Of a DNA stretch of 64,000 bases, positions 4,846 to 64,000 are shown piece after piece. This DNA is from an uncultured Candidatus Binatia bacterium (lineage in GTDB: Bacteria; Desulfobacterota; Binatia; UBA9968; CAXXLF01), in contig OZ244621.1 of NCBI GenBank assembly GCA_965218425.1, positions 128,001-192,000 of the forward strand, written 5' to 3'. The position numbers and the translations under genes are program-made. Every line of letters begins with the position of its first letter. Position 1 is the stretch's first letter. Below the pieces are notes generated by a model. The model searched no databases and was not told where the DNA came from. It saw only the letters and a program-made list of their open reading frames with translations.

Positions 4846-6732
4846 TTAATCCAGCTGACTCCAGTCGCGAAATTCTTCCAACCCTAACTTGGCCAGGGTA
4901 TCCATATAAGGACGACCCGTTTTGGGATGTCTTCCCGAAAGAGTGTAGTATTCCTCAACCATGGCCGGGAGCCACTTGGCGATGGTAAAACCCTTGTACT
5001 TTCCGTCTGGGACCGGCTCGAGGAACCTAGGACCTACATCCTTCCAGTCTTCCTCGGCACTCCAGCCTCTCTGCAATGCAAAGATGGATTGCAAGACCAC
5101 GCTCCTGAAACCCGCATCGAGACCTTCATCCAGGTCAAAATTCCACCCCGTGGTGGCGTTCAGGGAGTCCACCACGCTGTTTAGGGCATCAGGCCGGGCA
5201 TGACTCACGGCAAACCAGCAACCTCCAATGAGGCCGGTGAACTGACGGTGCCATTCGGATAAGACCTGAGACCAGGGCCAACCCGCGGGATCATCCCGGT
5301 CCAGCGGACCCCAATTTTCGCGATACCGAAGATCTGGAGATGGTTTGTCGGACCCTCCCCCTTGGGGCTTCATTCCCCCACTGGCAACGATCTCGCGGAG
5401 CATCTGTCCAAAGTGGGGCCGCCAATCATGCAGGGCGGGTGTCCCCTTTTTCGTGTGCACCACCCACTGGCGGGCCTCTCCCCCAATGGCATCAGCCACC
5501 TGGGTGGGTCCGTCAGCAATGAGATTTCCCCAGCGGCCCTCGCGACGGGCTGCCATATCCAGCAACCGTGAGATGGTCTCGACGTCGCCCCACTCAAAAC
5601 GAAGTCCCTCGGTTTGATCAGGCCCCAGGAGGCCCTTTTCCCAAGCCTCGAAGGCCACAGCCACTCCACAGGAAAAATGACTGCACTCGATCCCCACGTC
5701 ATTGATTCTCTCAGCGAGGTAAAGAGCGTCGCTTCCCTTGACGCCAAGGTTAAAGAAGGAGTCCATCCATTCGCTGCCTGCGTTGAAGTGCCCAACCACC
5801 CCTGGATGAGAACCGTTTCTGAGCTCAACATCCTCGGGACAACATGCCTGGCACTGGAAGCACGGCCGTAACGTTATTCGATTTTCATCAAACCCGCGCG
5901 CGTGATCAGAAATGAGGGTGCTACGATAGTTCAGGTTGGGTACTGCTTCTAAATGCACCGCGTGACCGGCGGAGTCCATTACCCCGGAATTTCTCCTAAG
6001 CACCTTGCGCCACCGAAGCCCCGCCTCAATGAGTTTTCCCTTGTCCCGGATGGGCGGTCTCATGGTCCCGCTCACCACAATGGCCTTGAGTTTCTTGGAG
6101 CCAAAAATTGCCCCGCCGCTGTGGGAAGCGCTGTGGTTGTAGTCGTTGCATAGCATCGCGGCGCCGTTAAGGTTCTCACCCGCCGGCCCGATGCACAGCA
6201 CCCTGGCATCCTTGATCCCCACCTCCGCCCTCAGAAGATCCTCCGTATCCCTGGAGCCCTTTCCCCACACCCGGCTGGCATCTCGAAGCTCGGGTTTCCC
6301 GTCATTGATGAATAAGTAAGTGGGCTTGTGTGAAACCCCTTCCACGATTAAGCCATCGTAGCCTGCGGACTTCAGATAAACTGCCCAGAAACCGCTGGCA
6401 GCGCCCCGACCCAGGGTATGTCCTGTGAGTGGACTGAGAAAGATGGCCGTTACTTTGGTTCCACCTGGCGTCAGGCCAGTCCCCGTGATGGGCCCTGTCA
6501 TCAGCACTACTTTGCTTTCAGGACCTAAAGGCTTCGCGTCCAGGGGGAGTTCGTGGAGCAAGGTGTACAGGGCCAGGGCCTGTCCGCCAAGGAGCTTCCT
6601 GAGCACGGGCTCTTCCGGCAGATTTTCATCCTTCATGGTCCCGGAGGTCAGGTCCACACGTAGGATCTTGCCCATGTATCCGCCCGGCAATACCGTCTTA
6701 CGTTCACGAGGGAATAGTTCACCATCGAACAT
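4846..6732 (-). CDS. Aldehyde:ferredoxin oxidoreductase family (AOR/WOR) catalytic subunit
   Basis: GYMGKILRVDLT, SPLTG, LKSAGYDG, CIGPAGEN, GSKKLKAI, CxxCxxxC and a C-terminal GGCWF cysteine. Confidence 0.92.
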   Translation of the reverse strand: MFDGELFPRERKTVLPGGYMGKILRVDLTSGTMKDENLPEEPVLRKLLGGQALALYTLLHELPLDAKPLGPESKVVLMTGPITGTGLTPGGTKVTAIFLSPLTGHTLGRGAASGFWAVYLKSAGYDGLIVEGVSHKPTYLFINDGKPELRDASRVWGKGSRDTEDLLRAEVGIKDARVLCIGPAGENLNGAAMLCNDYNHSASHSGGAIFGSKKLKAIVVSGTMRPPIRDKGKLIEAGLRWRKVLRRNSGVMDSAGHAVHLEAVPNLNYRSTLISDHARGFDENRITLRPCFQCQACCPEDVELRNGSHPGVVGHFNAGSEWMDSFFNLGVKGSDALYLAERINDVGIECSHFSCGVAVAFEAWEKGLLGPDQTEGLRFEWGDVETISRLLDMAARREGRWGNLIADGPTQVADAIGGEARQWVVHTKKGTPALHDWRPHFGQMLREIVASGGMKPQGGGSDKPSPDLRYRENWGPLDRDDPAGWPWSQVLSEWHRQFTGLIGGCWFAVSHARPDALNSVVDSLNATTGWNFDLDEGLDAGFRSVVLQSIFALQRGWSAEEDWKDVGPRFLEPVPDGKYKGFTIAKWLPAMVEEYYTLSGRHPKTGRPYMDTLAKLGLEEFRDWSQLD

Positions 6733-56674: not shown

Positions 56675-57304
56675 ATGGAAACTCGCGGCAAAAACGCACT
56701 TGAACGTTTCATCGGCAAGACCCGGGAGCAGTTCGCCAATGAGCCGGACCTGGACAAACGGTGGGCGGCGCTGCCGCCGATCCTGAAGGAGCTCCTGGAG
56801 GACCCGGAGGTTCGTGAGGCCTCAAGAGCATGGCCGGTTCCCGGTTCAATCGTAAATTCGGGGGAGCGTCGTGCCGGGAATCTGCTGTTCTACGAGGATC
56901 CGGACTATGGGTTTGTTATCAACGGTCAGGTCCACGAAGCGGCCCAGCGGCAGGGCGAACCGAGACGCGCTCATGATCATGGAGCCATCTACACCGCCTA
57001 CGGCTTGTTGGACGGGCACGAGCGGATCACGCTGTATAAGCGAACCGACGACGGGTCCAAACCCGACCACGCCGAGGTGGAAAAGACTTCCGATTACCTG
57101 GCCGCGCCCGGGGATGTGCACCTGGCCAGGCCACGAGACATCCATTTGGAGGTTAACGTCGGCGAGCGAACGGCCGCCGTGATCATTCGCAGCGCAAAGG
57201 ACGGAGTGCCGACCAACCTTCACGGCCGGTACGACCTGGAAACCAACAGATACGACGAGAGTATCGGGCCGCGCCAGATACCCGCCGAGATGCTGCCCAA
57301 GTAG
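56675..57304 (+). CDS. Cysteine-dioxygenase-like 3-His cupin
   Basis: YEDPDYGF, AHDHG, G.E..Y.R.DDGS, DIH. Confidence 0.72.
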   Translation: METRGKNALERFIGKTREQFANEPDLDKRWAALPPILKELLEDPEVREASRAWPVPGSIVNSGERRAGNLLFYEDPDYGFVINGQVHEAAQRQGEPRRAHDHGAIYTAYGLLDGHERITLYKRTDDGSKPDHAEVEKTSDYLAAPGDVHLARPRDIHLEVNVGERTAAVIIRSAKDGVPTNLHGRYDLETNRYDESIGPRQIPAEMLPK

Positions 57305-57336
57305 AGGCTCCGGGTCCGAATCTCCCCGGCGCCTCA

Positions 57337-57553
57337 TGCCTTCTTGCTATTCTGGGTTTCCCCCCCTTTCGGATTCCGGCTTGTATCGTGCCAATTCTCT
57401 CTTGGAACGTCCTGTCCATCTGGACGCGGCGTTCTAAAGCATGGATGCGATTCTTTCTCGTCGATGGCATTTAGCTGGATGTATCGTTTGTGACAGTCTA
57501 ACCCGACGTAAAGCATGGGGTCTTCTCCTTTCAGGTTTGATGGCCGCTACAAC
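57337..57553 (-). mobile_element. IS110-derived miniature element, copy A
   Basis: RBS plus MLYVGLDCHKRY..AIDEK (IS110 N-terminus) joined out of frame to KNRIHAL; homologous to 59935-60150. Confidence 0.75.
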
Positions 57554-57786
57554 GATGAGGTCGGTACCGGAGGATCTCTGATGTGTCATACCGCAGCAGG
57601 AGGAGTCTGATGGGACAAGGGAGCGATAAAGAGCCGGGTGCTGGCGGGTCCGGCGGTGTCCTACTCCAGCGGTGACGGCGGGTAGCCGGAATCCAGCTGC
57701 TCGTCGAGAATGAGGGCCGAACAGACGCGGCAATTCGTTACGATGGGACGACGACTCTACAGGACGAGAGCTCGCTCGGAGGCTTC

Positions 57787-59763
57787 ATGACCAAAAACCG
57801 GTTCGCTACCGCACTCGCTGCCCTCGTGCTCGCGCCCACGCTGGCGGTCTCCCACCCGCTCGACGGGTTGACGGCGGCGGAAATTCGGCGCGTCACCGAG
57901 ATCCTGCGCGCGGCGGGCGAAGCGAACGACCGGACGCGGTACCCGCTGATCGAGCTGATCGAGCCGCCGAAGGCGGATGTCCTCGCGTGGTCCGAGGGAG
58001 ACCCCGCGCCGCGCCGCGCCCTGGTGCACCTGCTGAGCGAGACCGGCTTTCGCACCGCCGTCGTCGACATTACGGACGGCGCGGTCGAAGCCGCCGGCCC
58101 GGCCGCGGGCCAGCCTATGGTGCTGTTCGAGGAATTCACCGGCGCTATGAGAGCCGCTCTCGAGCATCCGGAGATGGTCGCCGGGCTGGCAAGGCGCGGC
58201 CTGACTCCCGCCGACGTGTTCTGCCTGCCGCTGACCGCCGGCAACTACCTGACCGCGGAGTACGAGGGCACGCGTCTGATGAAGGTGCCCTGTTACCTCA
58301 ATCCGGCAGGCTCGAACTACTACGCCAAGCCGATCGAGGGCCTGTTCGCGGTCGTCGATCTGATGAAAGGCGAGGCGACCGGCGTCGTGGACGAGGGCGT
58401 CGTGCCGGCGCCGGAGGACGACTGGGGCTACACGCAGCAGGAAGTCGCCGCTCGCCGGCCGTTGCGCCCGGCATCCAGCCCGGTCAATCTGACCCAGCCG
58501 GGCGGCCCCGGCTACGCAATCACGGGCTCGCGCATCGAATGGGACATCTGGCGCTTCCGCCTGCGAGTCGACAAGCGACCGGGCATCGTGCTCTCGAACA
58601 TCGACGTGCGTGACGGCGAGCGCTGGCGGTCGGTGCTCTACCAAGCTCATCTCTCCGAGGTGTTCGTGCCCTACATGGATCCGGCTGCGGGCTGGTATTT
58701 TCGCACCTATATGGACAGCGGCGAATACGGCTTCGGCCTGTTCCTCAGCCCCTTGACGGCCGGCGTCGATTGCCCCCGCCACGCGACCTTCATGCCGGCG
58801 TTCGTCAACGACGACCGAGGCAGACCGCTGGAGATCCCGGACGCAATCTGCGTGTTCGAGCGATCCATCGGCGACCCGGCTTGGCGCCACTTCGAGGTGT
58901 TCGCCCAGGGCGAAGCCACGTTCGTGCCGGCCGAGGGCCGGCGCGATATCGAGCTGGTGGTGCGAAGCGTCTCCGTCGTCGGCAACTACGACTATTTGAT
59001 CGACTATCGCTTCCGTCAGAACGGCGAGATCTACATCAAGATCGGCGCGACCGGCCTGGATGCGGTCAAGGGCGTTGCCTCCGCCTCGATGGAGGACCCG
59101 ACCACCGTCGCCGACACCGCCTACGGCACGTTGGTGGCGCCCAACCTCGTGGCGCCGTTCCACGACCACTATTTCAACTTCCGCCTGGACTTCGACGTCG
59201 ACGGCCCAATCAATCATCCCGCCGTCTTGGAGGTGGTGGCCGGCGAGCCGGCAACGGACAGCCCGCGCCGCTCGTTCTGGACGGTCAAGCGCTCAACCCC
59301 GGCCTCTGAGTTGGAGGCGCGCTACACCTTGAGCGCGATGGCGCCGATGTACTTCCTGGTCCTGAACCAAGCCGAGCGCACGCCGCTGGGCCATCACCCC
59401 GCCTACATGATCCATCGCGGCAGCGTTGCCTACGGTCCGTTCGACTACGCCGCCGACCCGCCGATGAGACGCAACGCCTATATCGAGTACACGATCTGGA
59501 ACACCGTCCACGATCCGGCCCAACGCTATGCCGGCGGGGAGTTCCCGATGCAGAGCGACGGCTCGGACACGTTGGCCGAGTGGGTCAAGGCGGACCGGCC
59601 GTTGCAGGGTACAGACGTGGTGACGTGGTTCACCGCGGGGTTCCACCACCTCCCGCGGGCCGAGAACTGGCCGGTGATGTCGACCGATTGGAAGACCATT
59701 CACATCATCCCGCACAACTTTTTCGCACAGAACCCGGCGCTGACGATCCGGGCGGCACACTGA
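57787..59763 (+). CDS. Secreted copper-containing (TPQ) amine oxidase
   Basis: Signal peptide, HPLD, D.GEYG, GNYDY, HDH, H.PR.E.WPVM. Confidence 0.95.
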   Translation: MTKNRFATALAALVLAPTLAVSHPLDGLTAAEIRRVTEILRAAGEANDRTRYPLIELIEPPKADVLAWSEGDPAPRRALVHLLSETGFRTAVVDITDGAVEAAGPAAGQPMVLFEEFTGAMRAALEHPEMVAGLARRGLTPADVFCLPLTAGNYLTAEYEGTRLMKVPCYLNPAGSNYYAKPIEGLFAVVDLMKGEATGVVDEGVVPAPEDDWGYTQQEVAARRPLRPASSPVNLTQPGGPGYAITGSRIEWDIWRFRLRVDKRPGIVLSNIDVRDGERWRSVLYQAHLSEVFVPYMDPAAGWYFRTYMDSGEYGFGLFLSPLTAGVDCPRHATFMPAFVNDDRGRPLEIPDAICVFERSIGDPAWRHFEVFAQGEATFVPAEGRRDIELVVRSVSVVGNYDYLIDYRFRQNGEIYIKIGATGLDAVKGVASASMEDPTTVADTAYGTLVAPNLVAPFHDHYFNFRLDFDVDGPINHPAVLEVVAGEPATDSPRRSFWTVKRSTPASELEARYTLSAMAPMYFLVLNQAERTPLGHHPAYMIHRGSVAYGPFDYAADPPMRRNAYIEYTIWNTVHDPAQRYAGGEFPMQSDGSDTLAEWVKADRPLQGTDVVTWFTAGFHHLPRAENWPVMSTDWKTIHIIPHNFFAQNPALTIRAAH

Positions 59764-59934
59764 GTGCCCGGGCACCGCACGGCGACGGCGGCTATGGCGT
59801 CCCGCGCGCCGGTGAAGCCGGCAGCCTTCTCCTTCCTGCAAGGTAGATTTCAACCGGGAGCGACCGCACCAGCAGCGCCGGAGTAATGGGGGCCAGGTAA
59901 CATGAAAAAGGGGTCAAGCTCCAACAGGATGGTG

Positions 59935-60150
59935 GTTGTAACGGCCATCGAATCTGAAAGGAGAAGACCCCATGCTTACGTCGGGTTAGACTGTCACAGA
60001 CGATACGCCCAGGTATATGCCATTGACGAGAAAGGATCGCATCCATGATTTGGCGGACCGCGTCCAAATGGACAGGACGTTCCACAAGAGAATCGGCGCG
60101 ATACAAGCTGGAATCCGAAAGGGAAGGAAACCCAAAATATCAAAAAGACA
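59935..60150 (+). mobile_element. IS110-derived miniature element, copy B (inverted relative to A)
   Basis: Collinear with copy A from gttgta.cggccatc to gaaaccca.aata.caa; 1-nt deletion just after the ATG. Confidence 0.75.
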
Positions 60151-60165
60151 ATCCTGACAGCGGCC

Positions 60166-60942
60166 TTAGAACCCGCAATCCTGGCAGACCTTGTAACGTG
60201 GTCCTCGGGCAGGATCGGTCTCGACTGCGACGGCCCCCCACGCTTGTCCTCTAGGCCGGGTGTAGGTCCCGCGCCCGGTCAGTTCACCGTCCACAAACTC
60301 GCCCTCGTAGCGGTTGCCATTGGTCCACGTATAGACCCCGCGGCCGTGCAGTTTGTCGTCCACGAACTCGCCCTCGTAGCGGTCGCCATTGGTCCACGTG
60401 AAGACCCCGCGCCCGGTCCGTTCGTTGTCGACGAACTCGCCCTCGTAGCGGTCGCCATTGGTCCACGTGAAGACCCCGCGCCCGGTCCGTTCGTTGTCGA
60501 CGAACTCGCCCTCGTAGCGGTTGCCATCGGTCCACGTGAAGACCCCGCGCCCGGTCCGTTCGTTGTCGACGAACTCGCCCTCGTAGCGGTTGCCATCGGT
60601 CCACGTGAAGACCCCGCGCCCGGTCCGTTCGTTGTCGACGAACTCGCCCTCGTAGCGGTCGCCATTGGTCCACGTGAAGACCCCGCGCCCGGTCCGTTCG
60701 TTGTCGACGAACTCGCCCTCGTAGCGGTTGCCATCGGTCCACGTGTAGACCCCGCGCCCGTGCGGTTTGCCGTTTCGTGTCTGCCCGTGATAACGGCCGT
60801 TGTCATAGGTGATTGTCTCTATCGCTGCAACAATGCTTGCGTTTTCGTTGTATGTCTGTGCCATCCCTGGAGGCGCGCTCGTCGTCACTACCAAGGCCCC
60901 GATCGAAACGAGAAACCATATCAAGTGCCTGATGGTTTTCAT
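60166..60942 (-). CDS. Secreted MORN-repeat protein, C-terminus possibly truncated
   Basis: RBS AAGGAGG, signal peptide, eight YEGEF..G.G..TW..G repeats. Confidence 0.85.
   Translation of the reverse strand: MKTIRHLIWFLVSIGALVVTTSAPPGMAQTYNENASIVAAIETITYDNGRYHGQTRNGKPHGRGVYTWTDGNRYEGEFVDNERTGRGVFTWTNGDRYEGEFVDNERTGRGVFTWTDGNRYEGEFVDNERTGRGVFTWTDGNRYEGEFVDNERTGRGVFTWTNGDRYEGEFVDNERTGRGVFTWTNGDRYEGEFVDDKLHGRGVYTWTNGNRYEGEFVDGELTGRGTYTRPRGQAWGAVAVETDPARGPRYKVCQDCGF
60262..60760. repeat. 69-bp tandem repeat encoding MORN units
   Basis: Near-identical units cccgcgcccggtccgttcgttgtcgacgaactcgccctcgtagcgg... Confidence 0.92.
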
Positions 60943-61269
60943 CACAATCCTCCTTTTCCAGTCCTGTTTATCAATCTTCAACCGAGCGAGTCAGCATCCG
61001 TGAAGATTGGGAAATTCGGCGCGATACAACCCGGCCGCCGGCCTTTGGCGGAATTTTTCGTAAATGCAATCGCTCTGCGCAATCGCAAAGATCGCCGAAA
61101 ACACAAGAGCGATTGCGCCTATTGGCTCTTTTTCTCGCACATATCTGAAAAATTCCATTGACGACTCGATTTTAGTGAGTTCATTGGAAAATTTTCAACG
61201 GCGTAGTGCAAGAGCAATTGCTTCGAGATCGGCATAGAATTATACAGAACTAGAGTCGTAAAGTGATGC

Positions 61270-61683: not shown

Positions 61684-64000
61684 ATGACGCCGGGCGAGTT
61701 CATTGCCAAATGGCGGGCATCGGAGCTAAAGGAGCGCTCGGCGTCACAGGAGCACTTCATCGACCTGTGCCGGCTGCTGGACGAGCCGACGCCGGCCGAA
61801 GCCGACCCGACCGGCGAGCATTACTGCTTCGAGCGCGGCGCCCGGAAAGACGGCGGCGGCGACGGCTGGGCCGACGTGTGGAAGCGGCACCGCTTCGCCT
61901 GGGAGTACAAGGGCAAGCACGCGGACCTCGACGCGGCCTTCAACCAGTTGCGGCAATACGCGCTTGCACTGGAGAACCCGCCGTTGCTGATCGTCTCGGA
62001 CATGGCCCGGTTCCGCATCCGCACCAACTGGACCAACAGCGTCAGCCGGACCCACGAGTTCGACTTGGACGATCTTGCGGATGCGGCCACCCGCGACAGG
62101 CTCAAGTGGGCGATGTCCGACCCCGAGCGCCTGCGCCCCGGCGAGAGCCGGCAGGCGCTGACCGAACGCGCGGCGGCGACCTTCGCATTGCTGGCGCAGT
62201 CGTTGCGGGAGCACGGCCACGAGCCGCAGGCAGTGGCGCATTTCGTGAACCGTCTTGTGTTCTGCATGTTCGTCGAGGATGTGGGCCTGCTGCCCGACAA
62301 CATGTTCACCCGGATGCTGGAACAAGGGCGAAAGCGGCCCGGGGACTTCGCCGTCATGGCGCGGGATCTGTTCGGGGCGATGTCCACCGGAGGCCGGATC
62401 GGGTTCGAAGCGGTGGCATGGTTCAACGGCGGGCTGTTCGACGACGACACCGCCTTGCCCCTGGACAAGGCGGAGATCGAGACAACGCTCAAGGCGGCGG
62501 CGCTCGACTGGTCGGAGATCGACCCTTCGATCCTGGGCACGCTGTTCGAGCGCGGGCTCGACCCGGACAAGCGCTCGCAGCTTGGAGCTCATTACACCGA
62601 CCGGGACAAGATCATGCGGATCGTCGAGCCCGTGATCATCCGCCCCTGGCTCGCCGAATGGGAAAAGACAAAGGCCGAGGTCGCCGCGGTCCTTGAACGG
62701 GCGGATGCGGCCAAGCCGAAGGCGGCGGCGACTCGACAGCGGGGGCAGGCGAAACGGCTACTGCGTGTTTTCCTCGAACGGCTGCGGGAGTTCACCGTGC
62801 TCGACCCCGCCTGCGGCTCGGGCAACTTCCTCTATCTCGCGCTGCACGCGCTCAAGGACCTGGAGCACCGGGTGCAACTGGAGGCCGAGGCGATGGGCCT
62901 CGAGCGGGCGTTTCCGGCGGTAGGTCCGGCCAACGTCAAGGGGATCGAGATCAACGCCTATGCGGCGGAATTGGCCCGCGTATCGGTCTGGATCGGCGAC
63001 ATACAATGGATGCGTCGCAACGGGTTCAACGAATCGCGCAATCCGATCCTCAAGCCGCTTGACACCATCGAATGCCTTGATGCGATCCTCGCACCCGACG
63101 GAAGCGAGCCGAAATGGCCGAAGGCTGATGTCGTGATCGGCAACCCGCCGTTTCTCGGGGATCGGGTTATGCGGGATGGCCTCGGCCACGAATACACTGA
63201 ATGTTTGCGCCGTGCTTATCGAGGTTCGGTTCCCGCATCCGCTGATCTTGTCTGCTACTGGTTCCATAAGGTTGGCGAGTTAGTAGCCCGAAGCAAGATC
63301 GCCCGCGCCGGTCTCGTCGCGACGAACTCGATCCGAGGCGGAAACAATCGAGCGGTTCTCGACAGGATCGTCGACGACAGTGCTATTTTCGACGCTTGGT
63401 CGGACGAACCCTGGGTTATTGATGGTGCCGCCGTCCGGGTCTCGCTGATTTGCTTCGCCCCCAAGAGCACGGGCCTCCCCGTCTTTCTGAACGGCGCGGA
63501 AACAGCCCATGTTCACGCCGACCTCACGGAAGGGGGCATCGACCTTACGCGGGCGTCGGGATTGACCGAAAACCGGTCCACCGCATTCCTGGGGGTCAAC
63601 AAGAACGGTTCGTTCGATATTCCCGGCGACGTTGCGCGGAAATGGTTGCGGCTTCCCGCCAACCCGACCGGACGCCAGAATGCCGATGTTTTGAAACCCA
63701 GGATCAACGGCATGGACCTGACACGACGTTTCTCCGATCAATGGATCATCGACTTCGGTTCCTCCATGACCGAGGCGGAAGCCGCGCTTTATGAAGAGCC
63801 ATTCGCGCATGTTGTGGAGCATGTGAAGCCGGTGCGGGCGAGCAATCGGATCAAAGCGCTCAGGGATGAGTGGTGGCGGCACTGGCGCACCCGGCCGGCG
63901 ATGTGGCGGGCCGTAGACGGCATGGCGCGCTTCATCGCCACGCCGACAGTGGCAAAGCATCGACTGTTCGCCTGGTTCGACGCCCGCATCTGTCCGGATC
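61684..64000 (+). CDS. MmeI-like fused restriction endonuclease-N6A methyltransferase (Type IIL/IIG), 3' end beyond the window
   Basis: Manual translation MTPGEFIAKW..ERSASQEHF..GWADVWK..WEYK, FNGGLF, GAHYT, DPACGSGNF, GNPPF; missing from the ORF track. Confidence 0.92.
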   Translation, partial: MTPGEFIAKWRASELKERSASQEHFIDLCRLLDEPTPAEADPTGEHYCFERGARKDGGGDGWADVWKRHRFAWEYKGKHADLDAAFNQLRQYALALENPPLLIVSDMARFRIRTNWTNSVSRTHEFDLDDLADAATRDRLKWAMSDPERLRPGESRQALTERAAATFALLAQSLREHGHEPQAVAHFVNRLVFCMFVEDVGLLPDNMFTRMLEQGRKRPGDFAVMARDLFGAMSTGGRIGFEAVAWFNGGLFDDDTALPLDKAEIETTLKAAALDWSEIDPSILGTLFERGLDPDKRSQLGAHYTDRDKIMRIVEPVIIRPWLAEWEKTKAEVAAVLERADAAKPKAAATRQRGQAKRLLRVFLERLREFTVLDPACGSGNFLYLALHALKDLEHRVQLEAEAMGLERAFPAVGPANVKGIEINAYAAELARVSVWIGDIQWMRRNGFNESRNPILKPLDTIECLDAILAPDGSEPKWPKADVVIGNPPFLGDRVMRDGLGHEYTECLRRAYRGSVPASADLVCYWFHKVGELVARSKIARAGLVATNSIRGGNNRAVLDRIVDDSAIFDAWSDEPWVIDGAAVRVSLICFAPKSTGLPVFLNGAETAHVHADLTEGGIDLTRASGLTENRSTAFLGVNKNGSFDIPGDVARKWLRLPANPTGRQNADVLKPRINGMDLTRRFSDQWIIDFGSSMTEAEAALYEEPFAHVVEHVKPVRASNRIKALRDEWWRHWRTRPAMWRAVDGMARFIATPTVAKHRLFAWFDARICPD

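Follow-up and report, generated by a model that had tools for sequence, protein, structure and literature searches.

In the window (the whole stretch of 64,000 nucleotides that was analysed, part of the bacterial genome G000) two short inverted repeats stand on either side of a copper amine oxidase gene. The favoured reading, held with somewhat better than even confidence, is that they are copies of a hybrid miniature element, composed of a stub of a TIRYT terminal repeat (TIR), the left end of an insertion sequence of the IS1111 group and the tail of a TIRYT transposase gene, and that this element arose by TIR-guided insertion and deletion fusion and was likely spread by TIRYT, not by an IS110 recombinase. 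An IS1111, predicted to be guided to the TIR, would have inserted there, and deletions would have fused its front to the tail of the TIRYT gene with the full terminal repeat; the right end of the IS with its guide is now missing from the genome, the left ends remaining as passengers. The anatomy, the sequences of both parents and the missing right end are directly visible in the sequence, while the targeting of the TIR, the joining of ends by TIRYT and the recombination among copies are deduced. The copies mark the joints of the variable gene islands of this genome, and the oxidase forms one of the many cargo blocks of a 52-kb island and is not carried by an intact composite transposon.

Anatomy of the inverted pair

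The first-pass annotation had described the arms at 57337-57553 (minus strand) and 59935-60150 (plus strand) as an inverted, collinear pair, and this description holds, with 86.6% identity over 217 nt (E 5e-69). The size of about 216 bp given to them is right for the repeats and too short for the element, which measures about 283 nt, as seen in the complete right copy at 59884-60166. The left copy lacks model positions 1-48, that is, its left terminus is gone, and its outer TIR is damaged (TIR score 17.0 versus 31-50 for the 48 ends used). The stub of the right copy joins the DNA downstream of the oxidase after a G, at the position usual for the family. The features of the pair and of its surroundings are listed in Table 1.

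Table 1. Features of the two element copies and of the neighbouring genes (window coordinates)
Feature	Position	Strand	Remarks
Last core gene ahead of the island, 209 aa	56675..57304	+	no Pfam match; 89% orthologues in G001, G002
Left copy of the hybrid element	57335..57553	-	model positions 49-267; at core/island border
Y1/TIRYT gene 3' end and damaged right TIR, left copy	57335..57437	-	
Internal IS1111 fragment (KNRIH segment), left copy	57440..57456	-	residue ~139 of parent-type protein
IS1111-group recombinase start codon and first ~20 codons, left copy	57457..57516	-	
RBS, left copy	57525-57532	-	
Patch of fragments of two other island genes	57580..57681	+	upstream of oxidase
Copper amine oxidase gene, 658 aa	57787..59763	+	PF01179, E 1e-115
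TIRYT TIR stub, 14 nt, right copy	59884..59897	+	ends in AGG core (IS1111 insertion point)
IS1111 left end, right copy	59898..59971	+	sub-terminal inverted repeat 59902-59918; RBS 59956-59963
IS1111 first codons and KNRIH fragment (from 60031), right copy	59972..60059	+	1-nt frameshift in codon 2
Y1/TIRYT gene 3' end and right TIR (60142-60166), right copy	60060..60166	+	
MORN-repeat gene, next cargo block	60166..60981	-	stop codon overlaps TIR end by one base

Both arms contain the RBS and the N-terminal IS110 codons that had been recognised in them, 21 of which belong to the element, and the jump to the internal KNRIH segment is confirmed by full-length relatives, which are matched at residue 139. 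The deletion junctions had been called identical; this is true of the first one, while the second differs by about 9 nt between the two copies and occurs in two forms in the family. The 3' part of about 90 nt, earlier regarded as non-transposase sequence, is actually the end of a Y1/TIRYT tyrosine transposase with its TIR. The view of the element as a non-autonomous IS110 derivative can be kept for the 5' arm, which is of the IS110 family, non-autonomous and derived by deletion, and has to be given up for the 3' part, a TIRYT tail and not an IS110 end.

Short-read contigs of runs X1 and X2 bridge all four junctions between repeats and flanks, in the reference orientation and without differences, and contigs of run X3 do so for three; these runs may include the source of the window. 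The one contig joint on the opposite strand lies inside the repeats, with sides of 26-44 nt, and contigs break within repeats. Inversion by recombination between the 87%-identical arms is possible in principle.

The TIRYT and IS1111 parents

Right-only pieces of the element run upstream into coding sequence, and the right arm continues into an intact gene for a 324-aa Y1 HUH transposase (G000:C1:2584240-2583269, minus strand); the 3' part is therefore the last ~35 codons of TIRYT with the TIR. The gene has inverted TIRs on both sides, of which the right one contains its stop codon, and with both TIRs it occupies G000:C1:2583258-2584270. Its product carries the Y1 HUH domain (PF01797, 63 bits against a cut-off of 23) with the HVH and YIHLNP motifs, scores 72 bits with NF047646 (below the cut-off of 80), and at the C-terminus resembles Bac_DnaA_C (PF08299, E 1e-5, 25.9 bits, below the cut-off of 31.5), with NCBIfam DnaA C-terminal matches at E 2e-5. 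The TIR consensus of 48 ends includes GGGGTCAG and shows the GGGGWSAS pattern; the gene's own two TIRs are one base off each.

TIRtron/TIRYT (Di Nocera et al. 2013, PMC3733652), TnpA-Y1 subclass 2.1.2 (Quentin et al. 2018, PMC6006769) and RAYT group 1 (Bertels et al. 2017, PMC5581495) designate the same system. TIRYT was named in 2013 and described as a Y1 gene with a C-terminal helix-turn-helix and with TIRs containing GGGGWSAS, its activity being left for testing (PMC3733652), and the accessible portions of PMC3733652 and PMC6006769 hold no demonstration of transposition. By that description the present gene is alike in its 324-aa Y1 HUH product, GGGGWSAS TIRs and 3' TIR overlapping the stop codon, its C-terminus may be the DnaA-like helix-turn-helix, and, as with TIRtrons, a TIR repeat family is present in the genome. 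In contrast to the single, dimeric or grouped TIRs described for these systems, the repeats here are internal-deletion derivatives of 100-283 nt, half of which bear an IS1111 left end, and they are concentrated at cargo joints. The hybrid element is a TIRtron derivative carrying a dead IS1111 end; no description of an IS1111/TIRYT hybrid or of TIRYT-bordered cargo was found in the open literature searched.

A stretch of 2.1 kb that adjoins the TIRYT gene and takes in the 3' two thirds of it is shared with G002 at 98.8% identity, as against 84-89% in nearby core genes, so a recent exchange between genera is likely; in this near-identical copy the gene is broken. A second intact Y1 gene (G000:C1:1404077-1405068) is unrelated, with the same architecture and its own short TIRs, and blastn found no other copies of it in the genome.

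The parent of the 5' part can be approached from one left-only piece, which extends through IS110 coding sequence to residue 60, and from a metagenome scan by exact pattern, which gave seven loci. Two of these (L032 and L034) hold full-length IS110 genes of 351 and 355 aa, with the DEDD recombinase domains PF01548 and PF02371 and the same left end as the hybrid element; one more holds a frameshifted gene. The parent type has a short left end, imperfect sub-terminal repeats of 17 nt and a long downstream non-coding region, in which about 105 nt with variable guide segments are conserved. A putative -35/-10 pair, 17 nt apart and read by eye, spans the predicted circle junction, and an RNA fold is predicted for the right end, with 0 compensatory pairs in 3 sequences.

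When six right ends are aligned, variation is confined to two short segments and to loops. The first segment equals the left flank/TIR motif GGGTCAGG in all three loci concerned (L031, L032 and L034), whose left flanks bear this motif, in L034 with mismatches. The second is complementary to the right flank in L032 (7 of 7 nt) and in L034 (5 of 6); in L031 it has no complement to its own right flank and fits the TIR consensus of G000. Three relatives in G217 read CTAGCAGG (two) or CTCACAGG (one) in this first stretch; correspondingly, the flanks of six related left ends approach the TAGCAGG type to a varying degree, with mismatches in most; left and right ends of this second guide group are on different contigs, so that their pairing is inferred. 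The order of the guides in the parent type, with the top-strand complement first, is that of the IS1111 rule given in PMC11187229, and the sub-terminal repeats, the downstream target and donor matches in IS1111 order and the predicted promoter at the circle junction are likewise those of the seekRNA and bridge RNA systems (PMC11187229, PMC11208160).

Judged from these matches, the IS1111 parent would have been guided to TIRYT TIRs: it probably landed in the TIR, since the guide in the right end of its relatives matches that TIR. The left terminus of the hybrid consists of a TIR cut exactly at the AGG core, to which the IS left end is joined. IS4321 and IS5075 are said, in work attributed to Partridge and Hall in 2003, to target the TIRs of Tn21. 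The parent type is predicted to be similar to them in targeting the TIR of another transposon; it differs in that the target here is the TIR of a Y1 transposase and that only left ends survive in the genome, as passengers. The parent type apparently supplies a natural IS1111 guide aimed at the end of another element, together with a re-programmed sister guide. At one further locus (L022:2900-3330) a truncated parent-type IS1111 lies in a short palindrome, and a second whole copy of the palindrome follows directly past the break.

A donor site or guide RNA had been suggested as possibly retained in the arms. In G000, 38 left ends persist, without right end or guide: a whole-genome blastn search with three parent-type elements (word 7, E up to 1) recovered left ends and linker and gave nothing credible for the right end, and a right-end covariance model, which recovers its 3 training loci in G217, had 0 matches in G000, G001, G002 and G215, where 150 of about 400-600 candidates were scored per genome. 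No conserved fold was found in the arms, including the 3' part, for which covariance folding had been proposed; they stay within about 2.2 sd of column shuffles with 0-2 compensatory pairs (alifold energies -6.0/-3.4 for the right arm in 36 copies and -23.9/-20.1 for the left arm in 24 copies). Since neither blastn nor the covariance model yields a right end and no fold is conserved, no guide or complete donor site is kept, contrary to the suggestion.

The full-length parent that the first-pass annotation hoped to find by BLASTN did not appear in the genome either. The two intact IS110 genes of the genome were considered as parent and rejected (22% identity to the parent type, no DNA match). 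A close full-length parent was found in 0 of 201 genomes class-wide at E 1e-40, in a search run without a positive control, and the parent-type protein gave nothing better than partial or distant matches in G001 and four other genomes. At G000:C1:1030900-1031450 lies a remnant of a different IS110-family element, a C-terminal fragment with its downstream non-coding region, which model R1 does not match.

One could also suppose that an IS110 recombinase with a bridge RNA moves the element in trans as a non-autonomous IS110, in the manner of the ssr9 module in ISPpu9, and the left end with its sub-terminal repeat and core is indeed well preserved. We consider this very improbable, because the right end, the guide and the parent were not found in G000, its two intact IS110 genes are as distant as stated above, and the boundary of the mobile unit lies 14 nt beyond the IS end. 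A non-autonomous IS1111 would keep both IS ends and the guide, and the hybrid element does not. The ISPpu9/ssr9 module in REP sites (PMC12288879) is alike in that an element of the IS110 family lies in a short repeat and has non-autonomous pieces; there the guide-bearing piece is moved by the IS110 enzyme, whereas here the guide-bearing end is lost.

Copies, junctions and mosaicism

A profile built from 15 long copies found 77 pieces in the genome (70 after merging overlapping halves), namely 15 full, 23 left-only, 32 right-only and 7 other ones. They form 16 clusters, which together take up 241 kb out of 4.46 Mb. The earlier idea that the element spread after internal deletion is well supported by this number, and a multi-copy family, with about 70 copies in 16 variable islands, is the answer to the question of copy number. 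A few clusters are close to tRNA genes, and the oxidase island is not. Of the relatives searched, G001 from the same genus and G002 from the same family contain the element; the other 38 gave no match. Two-ended copies number 21, are 200-277 nt long and share 14 nt at their termini; short, non-coding, multi-copy and ending in inverted repeats, they have these attributes of MITEs.

Junction statistics were based on 86 ends, from which 32 left and 37 right ones remained without those that share flanks. Information rises at offset -8 from the core motif from 0.12 to 0.61 bits in the left ends and from 0.02 to 0.51 bits in the right ends, and is close to zero at offsets -12 to -9 in both sets. A G stands at -8 in 21/32 left and 23/37 right ends, and in only 12/23 of those in relatives. 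Among 11 flank families with an uninterrupted homologue (our own grouping, from the best six matches per end) the break falls at -10 to -5 in eight and 13-23 nt outside the end in three. The 21 two-ended copies show no target duplication (2.62 versus 2.52 shuffled, p 0.33). Target-site duplication is not expected for HUH movers. A sharp boundary at -8 without duplication is the trace that would be expected of end-specific strand transfer, for which TIRYT is the candidate: it would attach the TIR by its 5' end to new DNA, usually behind a G and without target duplication, and by treating each end singly would build and trim the cargo blocks of the islands. The left-type end retains only 14 nt of the TIR, a stub which may be too short for recognition. 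The activity of TIRYT is directly testable, because the gene is intact, 86 natural ends indicate the cut position and near-empty sites exist in relatives.

Copies share a mean identity of 0.83-0.89, which makes them look old, and near-identical paralogues are almost lacking; present-day activity is therefore doubtful. Common variants are mostly two-allelic (third-allele share 0.06-0.12) and near linkage equilibrium (r2 0.03-0.065 versus 1/n 0.024-0.043). Two simple models of our own were simulated six times each: clonal descent gave r2 of 0.26-0.74, and a star phylogeny with hotspots gave low r2, with 0.31-0.36 as the third-allele share and 0-1 sites with transversions (4-5 observed). In five of 11 shared-flank families the element is less alike than the flank by more than 0.03 (for example 0.78 versus 0.99), and in the other six there is no drop, the element being conserved as much as the flank. 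On these patterns, recombination among the copies is likely the cause of the mosaicism; between copies that are 80-90% identical it would generate mosaics and could swap flanks. Other island repeats lean toward the same mosaic pattern, and ordinary IS families collapse to 1-5 types. Short island repeats of 8-14 copies (e.g. C1:236065-236150, 691351-691480, 1172552-1172688) have two-allelic sites and fast-decaying linkage. Assembly polishing as a cause was judged unlikely for the right copy, the only one checked, whose first ~160 nt are reproduced without differences by X1 and X2 contigs anchored in the unique flank.

Passive debris is a rival explanation of all this, in which the copies, after a few old transpositions, would owe their number and arrangement mainly to homologous recombination of the host and to duplicated island segments, with no enzyme acting now. 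It is in line with the strong divergence among copies, the mosaicism and shared flanks, the common truncation (62/77 pieces without one end) and the same mosaic tendency in other island repeats. We hold it to be rather unlikely, because homologous recombination alone copies flanks along, while 32 and 37 distinct outer flanks meet the element at a sharp common boundary, and because an intact cognate TIRYT is present in the genome. A bolder proposal, which we put forward tentatively and hold to be rather unlikely, is that TIRYT ends serve as universal adaptors of cassette shuffling: one intact transposase would join ends singly at a fixed offset, single-strand exchange between mosaic copies would swap cargo across islands and genera in an integron-like manner with no integrase, and the dead end of the RNA-guided IS would ride along.

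The amine oxidase in its island

The oxidase pair itself is no special device. The product of the gene contains what we take to be the active-site motifs of copper amine oxidases. It was called GC-rich, correctly (0.67 versus 0.54 for the genome), but neighbouring genes are likewise high (0.61-0.63). The oxidase was not found in any of the four other genomes of the family, and it has matches in 2 of 400 other genomes of the phylum, at 34-36% identity; its nearest database relatives are 84-89% identical and the nearest named one, alphaproteobacterial, 73%. It is likely a foreign, horizontally acquired cargo. Homologues in four runs diverge at or just past the stop codon, so the junction was not traced to a donor. 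A promoter scan of 57200-60300 found none.

Core synteny with G001 stops at window position 57333, which makes the left copy the island border, and resumes at C1:237669, about 52 kb on. At this site G001 holds 2.7 kb and G002 about 125 nt, with TIR-like sequence in both. The empty site that was to be looked for in relatives thus exists in near-empty form, for the whole 52-kb island and not for the oxidase pair. Further pieces of the element stand between the next cargo blocks (MORN, MmeI-like, PLP enzyme, LysR). The right junction of the oxidase is at the canonical end position, and on its left side lies the patch of other island genes (Table 1), in which the beginning of a gene for a PLP-dependent decarboxylase (91-93%) is joined, with an overlap of 14 nt, to part of a gene for a Cache-domain protein (92%).

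The proposal that the pair captured the oxidase, or can flip it, would make the two copies the ends of one unit, a composite transposon or invertible cassette comparable to TIME composites. The copies are inverted with both TIRYT right ends facing outwards, the right junction of the gene is canonical, and the oxidase is likely foreign, as its absence from the four other genomes of the family and its alphaproteobacterial relative indicate. A composite transposon would nevertheless be bounded by two undamaged, near-identical ends and have core sequence on either side, which is not the case here, and it is unsupported since neither end of the left copy is intact and this copy borders the 52-kb island. 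The two copies are not mutually closest (ranks 8 of 10 and tied 4-5 of 10), the core resumes about 50 kb further and not past the right copy, the same facing arrangement is common (9/39 neighbour pairs within 6 kb), and target duplication is absent. Capture as one unit is accordingly improbable. TIMEs and TIME composite elements (Szuplewska et al. 2014, PMC4133298) are similar non-autonomous units of ~260-280 bp which flank and can shuffle cargo; they are moved by Tn3/DDE enzymes and have 38-bp IRs and 5-6-bp duplications, whereas the present elements are predicted to have an HUH mover, show no target duplication and do not form an intact pair.

Several minor observations concern the neighbouring cargo. 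The MORN-repeat gene consists of 69-nt tandem units, and its last ~30 codons are off-repeat and end at the TIR, which suggests truncation. The C-terminus of the Cache-domain protein appears autotransporter-like by eye, with no Pfam match. The MmeI-like restriction-modification gene (window 61684-64000) has an 85%-identical paralogue at G000:C1:2934372-2937342, beside another copy of the element. A different short repeat with a TIR-like start (L049:4820-4890 and 5560-5650; G000:C1:239869-239984) sits between core genes in G000, G001 and G002, among other places at the entry site of the island.
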